A stretch of DNA of 64,000 bases from a virus (taxonomy: Duplodnaviria; Caudoviricetes): positions 96,001 through 160,000 of IMG/VR virus record IMGVR_UViG_3300028048_000040; one strand, 5' to 3'. The translations under genes and the position numbers were made by a program. Numbering within the stretch: position 1 is the stretch's first letter; every line of letters begins with the position of its first letter. This document shows, piece by piece, positions 9,331-58,816 of the stretch. The notes under the pieces are model-generated. The model made no database searches. It saw only the letters and a program-made list of their open reading frames with translations, and was not told the DNA's origin.

Positions 9331-9394
9331 TCACTGCTATAATATACAAATATAAATATTTAAATTTTCAAATAGTTATATACTATATACATGA
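9331..9394. promoter_or_regulatory. Divergent pair of early-type promoters TATAYTAT-N5-TGA (9331-9346 minus; 9379-9394 plus)
   Basis: TATATTAT-AGCAG-TGA and TATACTAT-ATACA-TGA. Confidence 0.7.
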
Positions 9395-29724: not shown

Positions 29725-32700
29725 ATGGCTTTAATGATTGATGAACTTCATCCTCTGAAGTTATACTCTGGTAATTATTTCTATAATATCCAGAAAGAAG
29801 ATAGAAAGAAAGGATCATTAGTGTATCTAATGACTCCTAATAAACAATCTTCTATCAATGTAATAAATCATAAGTTAGGAAAGAGAAATCTTATTCTATT
29901 CCAATCTTATTTCTTAGATAGAAATATAGATTTCATTATAAATGGTAATCTAAGTGAAAGTAAGACTTACAATATCAATGATGAAGAAGTTATACCAGAA
30001 ATAGGTATAACTGAATCTCTTATGATAGATAATAGAGATGAGATATCCTTAACAGAGAATGCTCTTATATATAATGGAGAAGATTATAAAGAAAGAATAT
30101 TATTTCCAGATGATGTAGATGATATATTATCTGAAGCATCTCAGTATAAGACTAAATATGGTTCTTATAATCTTACTGCTATATTTAAGAATATGCTATA
30201 TAAGCATAGACTTAAAACAAATAAGGATGTACTAAAAATCTATGATGAAATTAAAAAATCTTGTGATCTTATAAAATTTACTTATGTAGATCCAAGATTA
30301 TATAAAGGAAGAAATCTATTCTATGATTGGTCTTATTATACAGAGATATTCTTCAAAGAGAATTCTAAGTTCCAACAAGAAAGAGGATTAGATGTATTCT
30401 TCAGTTTTATGGATAGATTTATAACTGATAGAAGATTCCCAGATTATAATATTAAGACTATAGTTATACCAGTAAATGATTGGTGTAGAGGATTAGAAGA
30501 TCCATATGATTTTAAGAAGAATATAAATCCAATCTCTCTATTCTTTAGAAGATTTAGAATGAACTTTACTCAATTTGATAATTGGAATAACCATAATATT
30601 CTCTTCTTAGGAACTAATGGATTCTTTACTATGAAATTAGATTCCTTTGATCCTAATAAGAATCTTTCTAGATTTAAGATGTGTTGTGATAAGCTTATTA
30701 GGGAAGATTATAGCGATGCGGAGGTTATTGATACTGATTCTAAGACTATGATGATGAGCTTTATTGCAGATAGATTAGCTCAAGGTGGTATAGAATTAGA
30801 CAATATATCTGGTGCTACTAAGCATTTCTCTAGAGAAGAGATTAAAGATATGGGAACAATGAAGAATCCTACTCTAGAGAAAGATAAGTCTATTAAGAAA
30901 GCTATCTTAGTACAGAAACTAGAAAAGATAGTAAATCAATCTAAAGATGCTAATGAAGTTCTTAAAAGATTTGAAGATAATGATGATAGTGAAGAGAATG
31001 AGCAATTAAAAGAACTATTGTTAGATATCCAATCTGATGATGGTGTTAAGATGAATCAGGCTAGAACTGATAGAATGCAGTTGACTAGAAAAGAGTTACT
31101 AAAGAAACAGATCAATGGCAAATCTGTAGCAGATCTTATGGATCAATTCTCTAAGAATTATGATCTTAAAGAAGCAGGAGTAGAGATAGATTCTATTGAT
31201 GAAACTTGGAAACATCTTAAGTTCCCCTCTTTCTATTCTTCTTACACTAAAGAAGATATGGAAGCAGATATAGTTGCTGTATTTAAACACTATACAACTG
31301 TAACCCATCCAATGAATATCTTAGATATCAATGTAGAGAATACTTCTACTGCTGAAGATTATGTAAATACTTGGACTGTTAAGTATGAAGATGCTGAAAC
31401 AGGCAAAAGATATACAATGGTAGTAGATATGCCTAGATTGATTGATAATCGTTTCATGATGTTAAGAGGTAATGAGAAAGTATTGATTTCTCAGTTTATG
31501 CTTATGCCTATTATCAAAACATCTGAAACTGAATGTCAGATGGTATCTAACTACAACAAGATATTCATCAGAAGAAAATCACCAACAGGTAATGGTAAAT
31601 CTACAGTTATCATTAATAAGCTTATGAGAGCTTTACTAAAGTACGATGGCAAAGATTTCAAAGTAAATACTGGTGATAATAGAAAAGTAGCATCTAGATA
31701 TGAATTACCAATAGACTTCATTGATATGACTACCACATTTGATTCCATTCAATTTAAAGATGGTTCTTATATTTCTTTCAATATGAAAACTCTATCAGAG
31801 ATTCCTATAGATAAGAAATTCTTAACTAAGGATGATGCTAAACTTACTGAAGAAGAATTGAATAGAAAGTATTTAGCAATCTATGTAAATAAAGATGGTA
31901 AGAGAGAGCCTATCTTTAATGATGGTTGTGATAAGTTTATTTTAGATAAGATAGAAGAATATGATACTTCTAAGAGATTCAAAGAGCTATATGATGTATC
32001 TTCTGTATCTAAGAAACTTATGTATGCTGAAGCATCTATCTTAGGTATCAAAATACCAGTAATAGTATTGCTTTCTTATAATATAGGCTTACAGAAAGTA
32101 TTATCTCGTCATAATATCAAATATGAATTTACTGAGAAAAGACCATCTAAAGATCAATTCTATATCAAATTCTCTGATGGATATCTAGTATATGAACCTA
32201 AATCTGAAGCAGATAATTTATTAGTAAATGGATTAATGCAATTTGATACATCTGAATATTCTATATCTGATATCAATTCTAAAGACATGTGGATTCCAGT
32301 ATTAGATGAATTTGGTGGTAGAGTTAAAGCAGATGGTTTAGATAACTTCTATGATCTCTTTATGGATCCAATTACTACAGAAATTTGTAGACTTACTAAT
32401 CTACCAACTGATTATGTAGGTGCTATGCTGTATGCTAATGATCTATTGATAGATAATAAGTTCAATCGTCATACTGATATTACTGGTAATAGATTAAGAA
32501 CTAATGAGATTATAGTAGGTCACTTATATCTAGTAACTTCTAGAGCATTTGGTGATTATAGAAAGACTATAAAGAAGAATCCTAACTTAGCTCAGTTTAC
32601 AGTAAAGAAATCTGCTGTAATCGATTCTATCTTAACTCACGATCAGACCTCTTCTGACTTATCTACATTAACACCACTTCTAGAATCTGAATCTGGTGGT

Positions 32701-34197
32701 AAAGTAACATTCAAAGGTCTATCAGGTATGAACTCAGAGAGAGCATTCTCTGTAGATAAGAGAACCTATGATAAGTCTATGCTAGGTATAGTAGGTATTT
32801 CTACTGGTTTTGCTACAACTGTAGGTGTTAATAGACAGCTTACTATAGATGCCAATATTAGAAATAAGAGAGGATTTGTTGGTAATACAGAAGCAAAGAA
32901 TCTAAATAGTACTAATGGTTTCTCTATGTTTGAAGCATTATCTCCAATGGCTATTAATCATGATGACCCATTCCGTACAGCAATGGCATATACACAAACT
33001 GGTCAACACCAAATGACTACTAGAAAATCTATGCCTAACTTGGTAACCACTGGAGCAGATCAAGCTATCGCTTATCTCACTTCTAATAAATTTGCTTATA
33101 AGTTTAGAGGTAATAGAGGAGTAGTCAAAGAGATCAATGATCAATATATGATTATTGAAGATCAAGATACTAAAGAATGTGAATTTGTTGATCTTAGAGA
33201 AACTATTAGAAAGAATTCTGATGGTGGTTTCTATCTTACTACTAAACTTACAGCTACAGAAGGATTGAAGAAAGGATCTAAACTAAAACAAAATGAAATT
33301 GTTGCATATGATAGGAAGAACTATTCTAAGTCTGTTGGTACTACTGGAGATCCTCACGATATTTCTTATAATATTGGAACTCTTGCTAAAGTAGCTATAA
33401 TGAATACAGATATGGCATTCGAAGACTCTTGTGTAGTAGATGAATATGTATCTGATGCATTGACTACAAATCTATGCTATATGAAAGATATCAATCTAAA
33501 TAAACTCTCAAACGTATATAATCTAGTAAAACCTGGAGATAAAGTAGAAGCAGATGATAGCTTATTAGTATTCCAGGATTCATTTGATGAAGAAGAAGCA
33601 AATGAACTATTAAGAAATATCTCTATGGATCAAGAATTCATTTCAGATATTGGTAGAAAACATATCAGATCTAAAACATCTGGTGTAGTACAAGATGTAA
33701 AGATATATAGAACTTGTGAAATATCTGAACTCTCTCCAACATTACAAAAAATATGTAAAGAACATGATGCCAGAATCAATAAACTCAAGAAAGCTATGAG
33801 AGATAATAAGATAGAAAGGGAATATACTCTAGAACCTACTAAGAAATTAGAGCAAACTGGTAAACTAAAAGGTTTAGAAGGTGTAAGAATAGAGATCTAT
33901 GTAAAAGCAGTAGATAAGTTTGGTATCGGTGATAAACTTGTATTCTATCAAGCTTTAAAAGGTGTATGTTCTTATACTATTCCTAAAGAAGTATCTGGAT
34001 ATACGGATTATAGACCTAATGAAAAAGTAGGAGCTTATCTATCTCAGATTGGTACATTCAAACGTATGGTTCCTTCTTGCTATCTATTAGGATTTACTAA
34101 TAAACTATTAGTAGAACTTACTAGACAATGCCAAGAAGAACTGGGAATCAAATGGAGACCAATACAAGAAATAATGGAAGATGAACCAGAAGAATAA
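29725..34197 (+). CDS. Phage multisubunit RNA polymerase beta-like subunit with long N-terminal extension
   Basis: RpoB-like motifs 'GNEKVLISQ', 'HDDPFRTAMAYTQTGQ', 'AFEDSCVV', 'GDKL....KGV', 'KRMVPS'; ends before the RpoB C-terminal GGQRFGEME region. Confidence 0.92.
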   Translation: MALMIDELHPLKLYSGNYFYNIQKEDRKKGSLVYLMTPNKQSSINVINHKLGKRNLILFQSYFLDRNIDFIINGNLSESKTYNINDEEVIPEIGITESLMIDNRDEISLTENALIYNGEDYKERILFPDDVDDILSEASQYKTKYGSYNLTAIFKNMLYKHRLKTNKDVLKIYDEIKKSCDLIKFTYVDPRLYKGRNLFYDWSYYTEIFFKENSKFQQERGLDVFFSFMDRFITDRRFPDYNIKTIVIPVNDWCRGLEDPYDFKKNINPISLFFRRFRMNFTQFDNWNNHNILFLGTNGFFTMKLDSFDPNKNLSRFKMCCDKLIREDYSDAEVIDTDSKTMMMSFIADRLAQGGIELDNISGATKHFSREEIKDMGTMKNPTLEKDKSIKKAILVQKLEKIVNQSKDANEVLKRFEDNDDSEENEQLKELLLDIQSDDGVKMNQARTDRMQLTRKELLKKQINGKSVADLMDQFSKNYDLKEAGVEIDSIDETWKHLKFPSFYSSYTKEDMEADIVAVFKHYTTVTHPMNILDINVENTSTAEDYVNTWTVKYEDAETGKRYTMVVDMPRLIDNRFMMLRGNEKVLISQFMLMPIIKTSETECQMVSNYNKIFIRRKSPTGNGKSTVIINKLMRALLKYDGKDFKVNTGDNRKVASRYELPIDFIDMTTTFDSIQFKDGSYISFNMKTLSEIPIDKKFLTKDDAKLTEEELNRKYLAIYVNKDGKREPIFNDGCDKFILDKIEEYDTSKRFKELYDVSSVSKKLMYAEASILGIKIPVIVLLSYNIGLQKVLSRHNIKYEFTEKRPSKDQFYIKFSDGYLVYEPKSEADNLLVNGLMQFDTSEYSISDINSKDMWIPVLDEFGGRVKADGLDNFYDLFMDPITTEICRLTNLPTDYVGAMLYANDLLIDNKFNRHTDITGNRLRTNEIIVGHLYLVTSRAFGDYRKTIKKNPNLAQFTVKKSAVIDSILTHDQTSSDLSTLTPLLESESGGKVTFKGLSGMNSERAFSVDKRTYDKSMLGIVGISTGFATTVGVNRQLTIDANIRNKRGFVGNTEAKNLNSTNGFSMFEALSPMAINHDDPFRTAMAYTQTGQHQMTTRKSMPNLVTTGADQAIAYLTSNKFAYKFRGNRGVVKEINDQYMIIEDQDTKECEFVDLRETIRKNSDGGFYLTTKLTATEGLKKGSKLKQNEIVAYDRKNYSKSVGTTGDPHDISYNIGTLAKVAIMNTDMAFEDSCVVDEYVSDALTTNLCYMKDINLNKLSNVYNLVKPGDKVEADDSLLVFQDSFDEEEANELLRNISMDQEFISDIGRKHIRSKTSGVVQDVKIYRTCEISELSPTLQKICKEHDARINKLKKAMRDNKIEREYTLEPTKKLEQTGKLKGLEGVRIEIYVKAVDKFGIGDKLVFYQALKGVCSYTIPKEVSGYTDYRPNEKVGAYLSQIGTFKRMVPSCYLLGFTNKLLVELTRQCQEELGIKWRPIQEIMEDEPEE

Positions 34198-35588: not shown

Positions 35589-37370
35589 ATGCCTATTCTT
35601 AAGAAATATCAGGCTAGTCCATTTTATATAAATATAACTGTCCCTCAAGTTATACCTATTATTATGGGTGCACTTATAATAAAAGGAAATGTTAGACTAG
35701 TTCCACCTCATCAAACATCTTCATATCTTCCTGGAAATGTTACATTAATTCCAGAAGAATTTACACCAGAAGAATTTGATGGTACGGTTACAATTAAACT
35801 AAGTGAATATAAGCCAGGAAGTCCTGATGATATTATAATAGAAGGTAGCTCATTAGCAGGTTCTGTTACTTTTACTAATACTAAAGTTCCAGTACAATCT
35901 AATGACATAGTATGCCATGTAGAACTTGTGGATACATATTATAGAACTAATTTGCTAGATCCTATTGAATTAATAGTTCCGCAAACAACTGATTGGGATT
36001 TCCCAACAGATCCTACTGTAAAAGAGTATGATTCTACTAAATATGGTAGAGCTGATATAAAAGGTTCAGGTACTTTGGTAGCATATGACTATGAAGATCC
36101 TAATAATGATATATCTGGTTCTGGTAGATTGATGTATGAGTGGTATAAGAAATTTGTAATGGTTGGTAAAGTTACTCTTCCAAAAATAGAAGAATCTATG
36201 GATATAGATGCATCTGTAAGTATTCTACCAGAGGATTATGAACAAGATTTAATAGATATAGCAGTAAGAGTTCCTAGATATGATGTAAGTGTATACATTG
36301 ATACTAGGGTTATAGTTCCCAAGTTTAGAGTTCAATATACTATTCCCATAGATATAGAAGTTGTATCAGGATATTGTACATGTTTACCAGTAGATATAGA
36401 TGTAGTTAATGAATGTATTTGGGAATTTGATGGTAACGTATCTCTTCCTAAAATAGATACTGAAGACGATATAGATTCTACTGTTACTCTATTACCAGAA
36501 GCATATGAGGATATAGATTGTCATGCTAAATTAAATATATTAGCTACATATAGAGAGTTTGATTGCTCTGGATTCTTGATTGGTAGAGTTATAGATGAAT
36601 TTGGTATAGAAATAACTACAGAAGAATATGAAGATCCTATATATGATTTCAGTGAAGATATTATGGATTGTGTAGTACACTTTGGTGGTAAATCTCTATT
36701 TGATTTTGATATAACTGTTAAAACTGAAGCTATTCCTTTATTTGATTTTAAAGAAGATCTTATTGAAGGTATGGTTCATTTAAGAGATTATAAGAGAATT
36801 GGTATTGTTGTAGATCCTAGATGGAACTATGATGCTTATGTATTCAAATCTTCTCTATTAACTCTATTTGATAAATACTATGATAAGACTGTATTAGATA
36901 TAGTTTATGGTGGTAATCCTAGATCAGATTGGGATATAGAACATCTTGGATATGTATTCCATAATAAGCTTACTAAAGTTCCTATTATATTTGATCCTAT
37001 TCATCCAGATCACACTAAGAGAACTATAGAGCATTATATCTATCATCTATCTGATACTCCTATAGATGTACCTATAACAAAAGTATTCTTATTTACAGAT
37101 AGACCAGATTATATTGCTTCCAATCCATTATCTCTAATTACTCAGTTCTGTAAAGATAACTATATAGACTTTGCTATTATTACATCTAGTGGAGAGTTTA
37201 TAGATTATCATGATAATCAAGCTTTCTCTACTACAACTAATCCATTAAGAACTGAACCTCATTCAGTAATGGGTCCATTATCAGTAATGCCTATGGATCA
37301 TTTTAATAAAGTTGCTGAACCTAGTGATCCTAAACACCCATATTATCATCCTACTAAGATTATATATTAA
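35589..37370 (+). CDS. Probable structural protein: beta-repeat stalk plus C-terminal alpha/beta domain
   Basis: Start moved to MPILKK after SD AAGGAGGT; ACA-N6-TA at 35548-35558; D-I/F-x-x-x-V-x-L/V repeats like those in 315..5051. Confidence 0.6.
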   Translation: MPILKKYQASPFYINITVPQVIPIIMGALIIKGNVRLVPPHQTSSYLPGNVTLIPEEFTPEEFDGTVTIKLSEYKPGSPDDIIIEGSSLAGSVTFTNTKVPVQSNDIVCHVELVDTYYRTNLLDPIELIVPQTTDWDFPTDPTVKEYDSTKYGRADIKGSGTLVAYDYEDPNNDISGSGRLMYEWYKKFVMVGKVTLPKIEESMDIDASVSILPEDYEQDLIDIAVRVPRYDVSVYIDTRVIVPKFRVQYTIPIDIEVVSGYCTCLPVDIDVVNECIWEFDGNVSLPKIDTEDDIDSTVTLLPEAYEDIDCHAKLNILATYREFDCSGFLIGRVIDEFGIEITTEEYEDPIYDFSEDIMDCVVHFGGKSLFDFDITVKTEAIPLFDFKEDLIEGMVHLRDYKRIGIVVDPRWNYDAYVFKSSLLTLFDKYYDKTVLDIVYGGNPRSDWDIEHLGYVFHNKLTKVPIIFDPIHPDHTKRTIEHYIYHLSDTPIDVPITKVFLFTDRPDYIASNPLSLITQFCKDNYIDFAIITSSGEFIDYHDNQAFSTTTNPLRTEPHSVMGPLSVMPMDHFNKVAEPSDPKHPYYHPTKIIY

Positions 37371-37375
37371 ATAAC

Positions 37376-37408
37376 TAGGAGAGCTCATATGAGCTCTCCT
37401 ATATTTTT
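37376..37408 (+). terminator. Palindromic terminator (AGCTCATATGAGCT family)
   Basis: TAGGAGAGCTCAT/ATGAGCTCTCCTA plus T-tract. Confidence 0.75.
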
Positions 37409-37445
37409 GTAATTATTAAAAATTTTAAGCATATATTATATCAGT

Positions 37446-37638
37446 GAAAGAACTAAGGACTATAGGAGACAAATCCGGTCCAGGCTCGGAAAGTGCAGCA
37501 TACCCACGCTGAGGTGGTAGCCTTTGACCACAAAAAGGGAGATAGCACTTGCGTGCTAGAAAGGGGTGAGTCCATTGAACAATTTAATTTAGTAATTTAA
37601 AGAAAAGAAGGTGTAGTCGAGCCTTCCTTTCTTTTTTT
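37446..37638 (+). ncRNA. Candidate GC-rich structured RNA (~190 nt)
   Basis: Early motif 37432-37447, ~51% GC core (hand count), several hairpins, terminator 37599-37638, no ATG-started ORF. Confidence 0.7.
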
Positions 37639-37699
37639 ATTTTATTCTTCAAAAGACAATAGAATAGCATTTATTCTATTTATAAGGAGAGGATTCAAT

Positions 37700-39031
37700 A
37701 TGAACATTCTAAACAAAATCAAAGATTTTTTTTCTGGTAAACAGAAAGAAGAAGAATTATTCAGTAAAGCAGAACAAGTAGATCGATCATCTGTTCATGT
37801 ACTAAGTGTTTCTCCTAATGTATATTTAGCATGTAGAGCTGCTAAATTATGCATTGGTAAAAAAGTAAATGGTACTATTACAGATAGAATGAAGTATATA
37901 GAGAAAATAGTAGGTATGGGTCATGAGAGTATTCTAGAACATACCAATGTGGTTGCTATGATTATCTATTATAATCCTATCTCTAAACCAGAACAATTTT
38001 CTGAAATCGTTGCTAATGGTAAGTATTTAGATATTATTCCTAAGCAAGATGGAGAAAAAACTGTTGTTCTTATTGGTGGTTCTATTAGAGCTTATATGCA
38101 TCTAGTAAGAGAAACAGATCAGAATAATGTATATCTAGAAGACATCAAAAAAGTGATGTATCAGTCTATTGAGAAATGTTTCTTGAAATCTCTTATTGAA
38201 AAAGGATTACTTGATGAAGCTGAATGTAACTTCATGACATATGCTACAGTAGATAAACATGTAGAAGATGATCAAGAACCATTACCAGAAATTATAGAAG
38301 ATCCTAAAGAAAAAGAAAGCAAAACTTCTGATCTTATCTATATTACTGATTTTGATAAACTTTATAGCGATGTGGTATTACTTTCTGATAGATATACTAA
38401 GAGAGAAATAGTAAGAATGTGTCACTTTACATTCTTATTCCATGATATTTCTCGTTCTTGTGGTAATCAGTTATGCAGACACCGTAATGGTATTACACAA
38501 GAATCTCAAAGATATGTAACTCATGAATATACTAAAGAGAAAGACTTTATTGATCCTATCAGAATGCAGTTAGATGATAGATATAACAATCTGGCTCCTA
38601 ATCTTATAGAGAAATTTAATAAAGTAGACTTTAAGACTTATAAAGATATGATCTCTGCTGGTATATTTAAAGAAGATGCTAGAGCATGGTTACCAATGAA
38701 TGTTACTACTAAGATTATGATGACATTCAATGGATTTACTTTAGCTAAATTCTTACATCTTAGAACAGCTAAAGGAGCTCAATTAGAGATTAGAAATATG
38801 GCTAATGAAATGGTTCATCAGTTATTTACTAATACAGAAGCATATGTAGACTTTATAAATACAGTATTAAAATTTGGGTATGAAGATGTAAAACCAGCAT
38901 ATACTTCTGATACTATAGATGAAGAAATTGATATTAAAACTGAATCATTTGAAGATTCTAAAATAGACTCTGATGAAGCAAAAAGACTTCTTGAAGTAGA
39001 AGAAGAATATAAGAATTTAGAGAAGAATTAA
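37700..39031 (+). CDS. thyX: Flavin-dependent thymidylate synthase ThyX-like, with large insertion
   Basis: 'GHESILEH', 'ISRSCGNQLCRHRNGITQESQRY', 'KEDARAWLP', 'LRTAKGAQLEIR'; own ACA-N6-TA at 37656-37666. Confidence 0.85.
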   Translation: MNILNKIKDFFSGKQKEEELFSKAEQVDRSSVHVLSVSPNVYLACRAAKLCIGKKVNGTITDRMKYIEKIVGMGHESILEHTNVVAMIIYYNPISKPEQFSEIVANGKYLDIIPKQDGEKTVVLIGGSIRAYMHLVRETDQNNVYLEDIKKVMYQSIEKCFLKSLIEKGLLDEAECNFMTYATVDKHVEDDQEPLPEIIEDPKEKESKTSDLIYITDFDKLYSDVVLLSDRYTKREIVRMCHFTFLFHDISRSCGNQLCRHRNGITQESQRYVTHEYTKEKDFIDPIRMQLDDRYNNLAPNLIEKFNKVDFKTYKDMISAGIFKEDARAWLPMNVTTKIMMTFNGFTLAKFLHLRTAKGAQLEIRNMANEMVHQLFTNTEAYVDFINTVLKFGYEDVKPAYTSDTIDEEIDIKTESFEDSKIDSDEAKRLLEVEEEYKNLEKN

Positions 39032-57908: not shown

Positions 57909-58044
57909 ATGAATATTGCATTTTGGGAAAATTACTGTGATGAAAAGTGTTTAATTGCATCAAAAATAGGTATAAGTTCATTATTTCAAGCATATATTAT
58001 ATCAGTGATAAAAGCCATATAATTAAAGGAAGGAGGTAAAAATT

Positions 58045-58770
58045 ATGGCTAAGAAAAAAGCTGAACCTCAGGTTCAGAAGCTGGAACCAAATCCAGCATT
58101 AGATATTCTGGCTCTTAACTTGTTTGAAAAAACAAATGGGTCAGAAACAATGACTCCTGAACAACTTAAGGAGGCAATTAATAGAGTTGAAACTATAGTC
58201 AAACTCTATGCTAGAAGAATGTCTGAATGCACAGATGTTCAACGGTTACTTATCACAAAATGGTTTTCTGATACGACGATTAAAGAAGAAGATCGTATCA
58301 GAGTACTGGGGGTTGACCAGTACAATGAATGGTTAGCAGTTACCAAAAAAGCTGCAGAAGAATTGGCGGTAACAAAGTCGCCAGCTTCGGAAAATAACTC
58401 TGAAGCAGCAGCGACAATAGAAATGAATGGTACTGGTACCATGAAAGTGGATACCAAAGAGAAGGAGGAAACTAAAATGGCTATGTCTAAAGAAGAAATT
58501 CAGGAACTCGCAGCAGCAATGGCAGCAATGCAGCAGGGAGGCAAGGAAGAGAAGAAAGAAGACTCCAAAAAGGAGCAGGGATTCTTTGATGAGATGTGCG
58601 GCACGGTAAAAGAGGCAACCGATACCACTGTAGGTAAGGTAGCCCTTATCGCAGGCGGCGCAGCAGCAGGCATTTATCTGAAGAAGAAATTCTTCGACGA
58701 GCCAGCTGATTCCGACTGGGCGTCTGGTGAAACCCAGATCGCGTCCCAGGGAGCATCTATGTTCTTCTAA
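58045..58770 (+). CDS. Early protein with in-frame internal start at 58477 and C-terminal TM-like segment
   Basis: Early motif 57993-58008; SD AAGGAGGT; second SD AAGGAGG before ATG 58477; terminator 58786-58810. Confidence 0.75.
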   Translation: MAKKKAEPQVQKLEPNPALDILALNLFEKTNGSETMTPEQLKEAINRVETIVKLYARRMSECTDVQRLLITKWFSDTTIKEEDRIRVLGVDQYNEWLAVTKKAAEELAVTKSPASENNSEAAATIEMNGTGTMKVDTKEKEETKMAMSKEEIQELAAAMAAMQQGGKEEKKEDSKKEQGFFDEMCGTVKEATDTTVGKVALIAGGAAAGIYLKKKFFDEPADSDWASGETQIASQGASMFF

Positions 58771-58816
58771 TGACAACATTACTCAGAGGAGCACCAATTT
58801 GGTGCTCCTCATTTTT

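Follow-up and report, generated by a model that had tools for sequence, protein, structure and literature searches.

The stretch of DNA analysed here (64,000 nt, hereafter the window) corresponds to bases 96,001-160,000 of the IMG/VR record IMGVR_UViG_3300028048_000040, a phage genome record of 342,328 bp with 31.6% GC. Between a gene for a 603-aa protein and thyX it contains a short GC-rich segment, which raises the question of whether this segment encodes an RNA that functions in its own right, serves as a leader of thyX, or does neither. An earlier note, made from the letters of the window, had described it as a novel stand-alone structured non-coding RNA with a loose likeness to helix 8 of SRP RNA, possibly a decoy or mimic. 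The analysis described below makes it highly probable that the segment, here named RNA-A, is a functional structured RNA, while its reading as a stand-alone, trans-acting, protein-binding early RNA, taken as a package, is an inference that we hold to be evenly poised.

Genome setting and anatomy of the transcription unit

The GC-rich core, which the earlier note had put at about 51%, was recovered at 37450-37549 with a GC fraction of 0.51 vs approximately 0.30 in the surroundings, and scanning of the 342-kb genome in 80-nt windows revealed that 37446-37638 (+ strand) is the only stretch of at least 50% GC located outside ORFs. A second GC-rich candidate island lies within the gene 58045-58770 and was discarded. 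The GC-richest island genome-wide (0.59; window positions 58571-58799) is coding, is situated inside a gene for 241 aa whose promoter is the second copy of the predicted motif described below, and is not an RNA gene. The locus was found to be composed of the following elements:

up to 37370: gene for the 603-aa protein, directly preceding the RNA unit, with no family in a Pfam search
37376..37411, + strand: intrinsic terminator T1, belonging to the upstream 603-aa gene (scan hit 37376-37401)
37427..37445, + strand: predicted early promoter, core ATATATTAT at 37431-37439, followed by 6 nt and a predicted +1 at G37446
37446..37638, + strand: predicted transcript of RNA-A (about 193 nt), running from the predicted start G to the T-run of T2
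37599..37638, + strand: intrinsic terminator T2, a hairpin with a T-run ending the RNA unit (terminator scan and fold)
37653..37668, + strand: 16-mer before thyX, outside the RNA unit, candidate promoter or operator of thyX
37700-39031: thyX, 60-nt spacer after T2, assigned to the Thy1 family in relatives

The whole genome contains two beta-like and one beta'-like RNA polymerase ORFs. The beta-like protein adjoining the locus has its closest cultured relatives in LPJP1 (Listeria), Goe21/PBS1 (Bacillus) and Staphylococcus jumbo phages, with 27-33% identity; a 1490-aa RNA polymerase beta-like protein is encoded next to the RNA locus at 29725-34197 (+). The distant relatives L048 and L049 share the gene order of the locus (RNA polymerase beta-like gene, two genes on the minus strand, 603-aa gene, thyX) and have radical-SAM genes 3' of thyX. 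ARAGORN detected no tRNA or tmRNA in the window; a single tRNA (Arg-TCT) is present in the 342-kb genome at genome positions 65,360-65,434 (-), outside the window, which is a low number for a jumbo phage.

The predicted promoter was recognized as part of a 21-mer occurring exactly twice in the window, at 37427-37447 and 57988-58008, where no repeat would be expected. The repeat noticed in the earlier note was thus real, as was the motif with which it opened the unit at 37432, but the first copy begins 5 nt earlier, at 37427. The second copy is located about 40 nt 5' of a gene with a strong ribosome-binding site. In the Bacillus phage AR9, dRNA-seq defined the early consensus AAATATATATTAT-N6-G(+1), which is used by the injected virion RNA polymerase (PMC5312081). 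The 21-mer motif matches this consensus and predicts a start at G37446, and both the promoter-to-+1 spacing and the +1 G are identical in six of six homologues. With up to two mismatches allowed, the motif was found at 46 genome sites, most of them shortly upstream of genes, and the early motif precedes 29 of 291 crude gene calls vs about two in shuffles. Sites of the form ATATA[T/C]TAT-N6-G include window positions 9347(-), 29418(-), 34599(-) and 57992(+), and a hairpin in the 5' UTR follows many of the approximately 46 early-promoter sites. By analogy with AR9, transcription of RNA-A is probably immediate-early, starting at G37446. The AR9 late motif AACA-N6-T[AG] showed no enrichment in this genome, so this phage must have late promoters of another kind.

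T1, with an 11-bp stem including 6 GC pairs and a T-rich tail in the terminator scan, was kept in all relatives, including the cassette-free ones described below, and insulates the RNA unit from upstream transcription. T2, which the earlier note had correctly recognized as a terminator with a U-tract, was found in the homologues, where altered stem letters still pair. The unit therefore has what is expected of a small-RNA gene, namely its own promoter, its own terminator and no conserved reading frame. The 16-mer upstream of thyX occurs once in the genome, at the same distance to thyX as in cassette-free relatives. At window positions 37653-37683 it lies within an inverted repeat (AATAGAAT ... 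ATTCTATT) directly 5' of the thyX ribosome-binding site and may be an operator or promoter. Its reading as an AR9-type late promoter was rejected; the resemblance is loose, and the AR9 late motif is unenriched here.

Homologues, coding status and fold

Comparison of the region with 50,697 phage records by blastn returned no match. Exact and gapped DNA patterns, searched against IMG/VR, JGI metagenomes and GTDB genomes, yielded one real match, in a related UViG; the remaining pattern matches were GC-rich chance hits, all of which failed the covariance model. Most homologues were reached via contigs encoding homologues of the upstream 603-aa protein. In total, six homologues were obtained from related rumen/gut phage contigs (loci L003, L006, L007, which is cut by the contig end, L039, L040 and L044, the latter with the same sequence as L045), giving seven sequences that belong to one narrow clade. 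The covariance model built from three sequences recovered all seven with E values of 1e-8 to 1e-41 and indicated a single copy of RNA-A each in this genome and the related record of 333 kb, and it detected no RNA-A in the cultured relatives LPJP1, Goe21, S6 and JD-Fnp6. The identity of the RNA-A core between phages, 84-95%, is not above that of the flanking genes, so the case for selection rests on the pattern of change and on the invariant core.

The same homologues settled coding status and strand. The insert at the tip of the second hairpin measures 31, 29, 24, 41, 9 and 7 nt across the phages; since these differences are not multiples of three, no frame is kept and the locus is non-coding. 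The listed ORFs of 35 and 40 codons were accordingly discarded as genes or as a conserved peptide, their frames being broken by indels. Several helices contain G-U pairs, which would read A-C on the opposite strand and thus fix the strand as +, in agreement with the orientation of the promoter and T2.

RNA-A adopts a two-domain fold, in which the P1 hairpin is joined by a one-nucleotide linker to a long irregular hairpin, P2-P3, and is followed by a tail:

37457..37481, + strand: hairpin P1, with P1a (37457-37460 paired with 37478-37481) and P1b (37465-37467 paired with 37474-37476)
37482: the linker, A37482
37483..37557, + strand: hairpin P2-P3, with P2 strands 37483-37496 and 37545-37557
37497-37502 opposite 37540-37544: internal loop of P2-P3
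37503-37505 paired with 37537-37539: P3, 3 bp
37506-37536: variable tip, containing a GUGG/CCAC hairpin (37514-37517 paired with 37528-37531)
37558..37592, + strand: purine-rich tail, with an SD-like run at 37563-37569, an invariant CCAUUG at 37572-37577 and a mini-ORF at 37575-37592

In P1 a stem of 4 bp leads through an asymmetric internal loop (UAUA opposite G) to a stem of 3-5 bp capped by an A-rich loop. Of the eight P1 pairs, five are changed on both sides. Double-change cells numbered 11 vs 4.3 in shuffles, and none of 500 shuffles reached the observed covariation. Across the whole structure, pairing holds in 98% of cells and falls to 22-49% when the partner is slid by 1-3 columns. The comparison of L006 with L044 is illustrative: of the five substitutions that separate the two over 116 nt, four make up two compensatory pairs of P1a.

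In P2 all 11 pairs form in every homologue and the sole change is C-G to U-G. Because P2 is nearly invariant, covariation cannot prove the long helix; its pairing rests on energy, on this one-sided change and on one coordinated 2-nt insertion, L006 and L044 having two extra nucleotides on each P2 strand that extend the helix. The consensus long-range fold is the minimum free energy structure in four of six homologues and lies no more than 1.4 kcal/mol off in the other two. The alternative fold, made of two local hairpins, is less stable by 4-9 kcal/mol. Hardly any change was seen in the central 45 nt, whereas the rest of the locus differs by 10-20%. Readings of parts of the fold as a K-turn or as a boxB-like loop were dropped on inspection, their consensus being absent.

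The helices drawn in the earlier note were only partly retained. The GGA/TCC hairpin covaries among homologues, and TAGCAC/GTGCTA can form, but the latter belongs to the alternative fold and is broken by A-C in two homologues. The CCAC/GTGG pairing as originally drawn would leave a loop of 1 nt in L003, and GTGG pairs instead with a downstream CCAC; CCTTT/AAAGG fails through deletion of TT in L003 and L040. A closing helix GGACT/AGTCC is contradicted by the local pairing of GGAC with GTCC, which shows compensatory changes, and by L006, in which the 5' strand is altered and the 3' AGTCC is unchanged.

The purine-rich tail occurs as two sequence variants, with the SD-like run in both. Its UUG-initiated mini-ORF comprises five codons here and 2-5 across homologues, and is not conserved. 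An early gene at genome position 167,489 has an SD, an ATG and first codons that agree with window positions 37561-37583 at 20 of 23 positions. Judged by this sequence likeness, the tail looks like a translation-initiation region; it may descend from a lost gene, serve in ribosome binding or have arisen by chance through recombination. The early gene concerned encodes 718 aa with no assigned family, the similar stretch being at genome positions 167,476-167,500, outside the window, and its 5' UTR extends only 13 nt after the early promoter. The tail is not a specific copy of the thyX start, as the starts of other genes score equally well or better. Ribosome-mediated attenuation via the mini-ORF was also rejected, the stop-to-terminator distance varying from 6 to more than 12 nt. 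In the 333-kb phage (L003:5971-6150) about 150 extra nt separate the RNA-A core from the terminator; they comprise an A-rich stretch and two more hairpins with no promoter motif, and might represent either a remnant or a third RNA module.

An accessory slot upstream of thyX

The unit of promoter, RNA and terminator is present or absent as a block among close relatives, even within one 90%-identity cluster of the upstream protein. The position between the structural-type gene and thyX is a variable spot, with the following contents:

RNA-A only: the window, L003, L006, L039, L044
RNA-A then RNA-B in tandem, each with an early promoter and a terminator: L040
RNA-B only: L009-L011
neither, with a gap of 97-105 nt: L008, L012, L041-L043
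neither, with a gap of about 122 nt between called genes (judged from gene calls): L048-L051, more distant phages

RNA-B is a GC-richer RNA of about 140 nt, unrelated to RNA-A (L009:2840-2981, same in L010 and L011; L040:3589-3726) and absent from the genome of this window. It has an AR9-type early promoter and a terminator of its own, and two complementary hairpin loops (GGUGGA / UCCACC) suggest a kissing or pseudoknot contact. No match to RNA-B was found in Rfam.

Both thyX and its upstream 16-mer are retained where the content of the slot differs. The gain and loss of the unit while thyX keeps its 16-mer argue that RNA-A is not a thyX leader, as the earlier note had judged probable, and that accessory RNA genes have a hot spot here. 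It may be, as a tentative generalization, that RNA-A and RNA-B are interchangeable immediate-early structured-RNA cassettes of AR9/PBS1-like jumbo phages, acting as RNA-based agents of take-over or counter-defence (aptamer-like decoys for a host protein or signal) and swapped in the manner of anti-defence protein genes.

Comparison with known RNAs and proposed role

A search of the whole window against Rfam at the gathering score returned no match to RNA-A, and at E<=10 on 37300-37750 (451 nt) it gave only terminator-like noise. The family is thus previously uncatalogued in Rfam. Together with the promoter and terminator of its own, the non-coding indels, the compensatory changes and the gain and loss of the unit, this bears out its description in the earlier note as a novel stand-alone structured non-coding RNA.

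In the proposed mode of action, the virion RNA polymerase would transcribe RNA-A right after infection from the AR9-type early promoter, and the transcript would stop at its own intrinsic terminator. The conserved irregular helix would then bind a host or phage protein in trans, RNA-A serving as a decoy, sponge or cofactor in early take-over or counter-defence, and neither base-pairing with a target nor SRP mimicry would be involved. No partner protein is encoded beside RNA-A at the locus. Two observations count against parts of this proposal: the layout of promoter, structured RNA, terminator and gene also fits a cis element, and the initiation-like tail suggests that RNA-A descends from an mRNA leader or is used as one.

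The first of these observations leads to a cis-acting leader, acting by polymerase modification or by sensing of a ligand or protein, in which read-through of T2 would add early thyX expression to the late one. Its best precedent is the putRNA of phage HK022, in which one base at the fork separates two long stem-loops, the second of them (stem II) containing non-canonical pairs, and which is located between early promoters and terminators (PMC9378689). RNA-A shows the same arrangement, with P1, A37482 and P2-P3 placed between the promoter and T2 and a gene behind, and it shares with putL and putR the promoter-proximal position, a size of roughly 70-125 nt, a second stem with conserved non-canonical pairs and the terminators that follow, which makes putRNA the nearest functional analogy in shape and position. 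The likeness is one of shape and position: put acts in cis on the host RNA polymerase and has no terminator of its own, whereas RNA-A has one, is not needed by thyX and would encounter a polymerase of phage type. Since T2 travels with the cassette, an antiterminator would cancel a terminator met solely by its own transcripts. Inspection and folds revealed no segment of RNA-A complementary to, or able to compete for, the 5' strand of T2, which forms in the full-length fold, and no Rfam family of known aptamers was matched, so that a thyX riboswitch or leader of known class was rejected. Moreover, the spacer to T2 varies in sequence and is about 150 nt longer in L003. Linkage to thyX is not constant either: thyX stands without any cassette in the close relatives L008, L012 and L041-L043 and in L048-L051, and in L040 the RNA-B unit intervenes, with a promoter and a terminator of its own. 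A cis-acting leader is, on this evidence, unlikely.

Rather less probable is a trans-acting small RNA whose 5' leader, tail or AU-rich spacer would pair with host or phage mRNAs. In favour of it, RNA-A resembles classical phage and bacterial sRNA genes in being a self-contained, non-coding unit of about 190 nt with its own promoter and Rho-independent terminator, and the purine-rich tail could pair with pyrimidine-rich targets. What RNA-A conserves, in contrast to those sRNAs, is a GC-rich folded core and not a single-stranded seed: the paired parts are conserved and the accessible spacer is the least conserved part, the tail exists in two variants, and the 5' leader resembles other early transcript starts and may be promoter-related.

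The tail is also the main argument for a relic, that is, what remains of the 5' leader and start of an early gene since lost, functionless today, as the stretch that matches the start of a genuine early gene at 20 of 23 positions leads into an ORF of merely 2-5 codons. This explanation appears somewhat more doubtful still, considering that at least 4-5 independent compensatory changes arose in P1 while the ORF-less form spread, and that the central 45 nt escaped the divergence seen elsewhere in the locus. A small self-cleaving ribozyme of an undescribed class would fit the small size, the invariant internal-loop core, the variable peripheral stems and the phage setting; it is very improbable, as Rfam gave no ribozyme match, the setting is neither repeated nor of the rolling-circle kind, and the conserved junctions that mark known classes are lacking.

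Least plausible, to the point of being nearly negligible, is a mimic of SRP RNA that would bind Ffh through its helix-8-like segment. SRP helix 8 is a GNRA-capped hairpin with an AGG/AGCA symmetric loop and outer strands paired together. The string seen in the earlier note is indeed present in RNA-A, with AGG ... GGAA ... AGCA in SRP order and the AGCA strand facing purines in a purine-rich internal loop, but the structure around it is different. The strand 5' of AGG is taken up by P1, where it pairs upstream, as the five compensatory pairs indicate, GGAAA is a strand of the long helix in the favoured fold and a pentaloop only in the fold that is 4-9 kcal/mol worse, the flanking strands are not paired together, and RNA-A has neither a GNRA tetraloop hairpin in the favoured fold nor a terminal rod. 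The Rfam search, which the earlier note had proposed as a check, found no SRP family even at E<=10 in the 451-nt region, nor at E<=1 in L003, L006 and L009, which refutes membership of that family.

Two further known RNAs were considered. The 6S RNA is a long closed rod with a large central bubble; RNA-A has no Rfam match to it, its ends are unpaired and its largest internal loop is 6 by 5 nt, so this identity was rejected. In phiKZ, Grad-seq revealed an intergenic RNA of about 100 nt between PHIKZ298 and PHIKZ297 (PMC8545117). By description, this RNA and RNA-A are alike in being short, non-coding and intergenic and in coming from jumbo phages with their own multisubunit RNA polymerases; RNA-A differs in its covariation-backed fold, its consensus early promoter and its cassette behaviour.

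Although many orphan structured RNAs are already held in catalogues and this family is confined so far to one uncultured rumen/gut phage clade, RNA-A is useful for its clear anatomy, for the evidence of selection on its structure and for the natural 'knock-out' and 'swap' variants (A, B, A+B, none) that occur among near-identical phages. To our knowledge, the roles of early transcripts in jumbo phages with their own RNA polymerase are largely unknown, and folded non-coding RNAs among them have barely been described; RNA-A offers a tractable entry point to the roles of early phage RNAs. If it binds a host factor or a defence component, as the protein-binding reading supposes, it would bring a class of RNA into a field in which protein inhibitors predominate.
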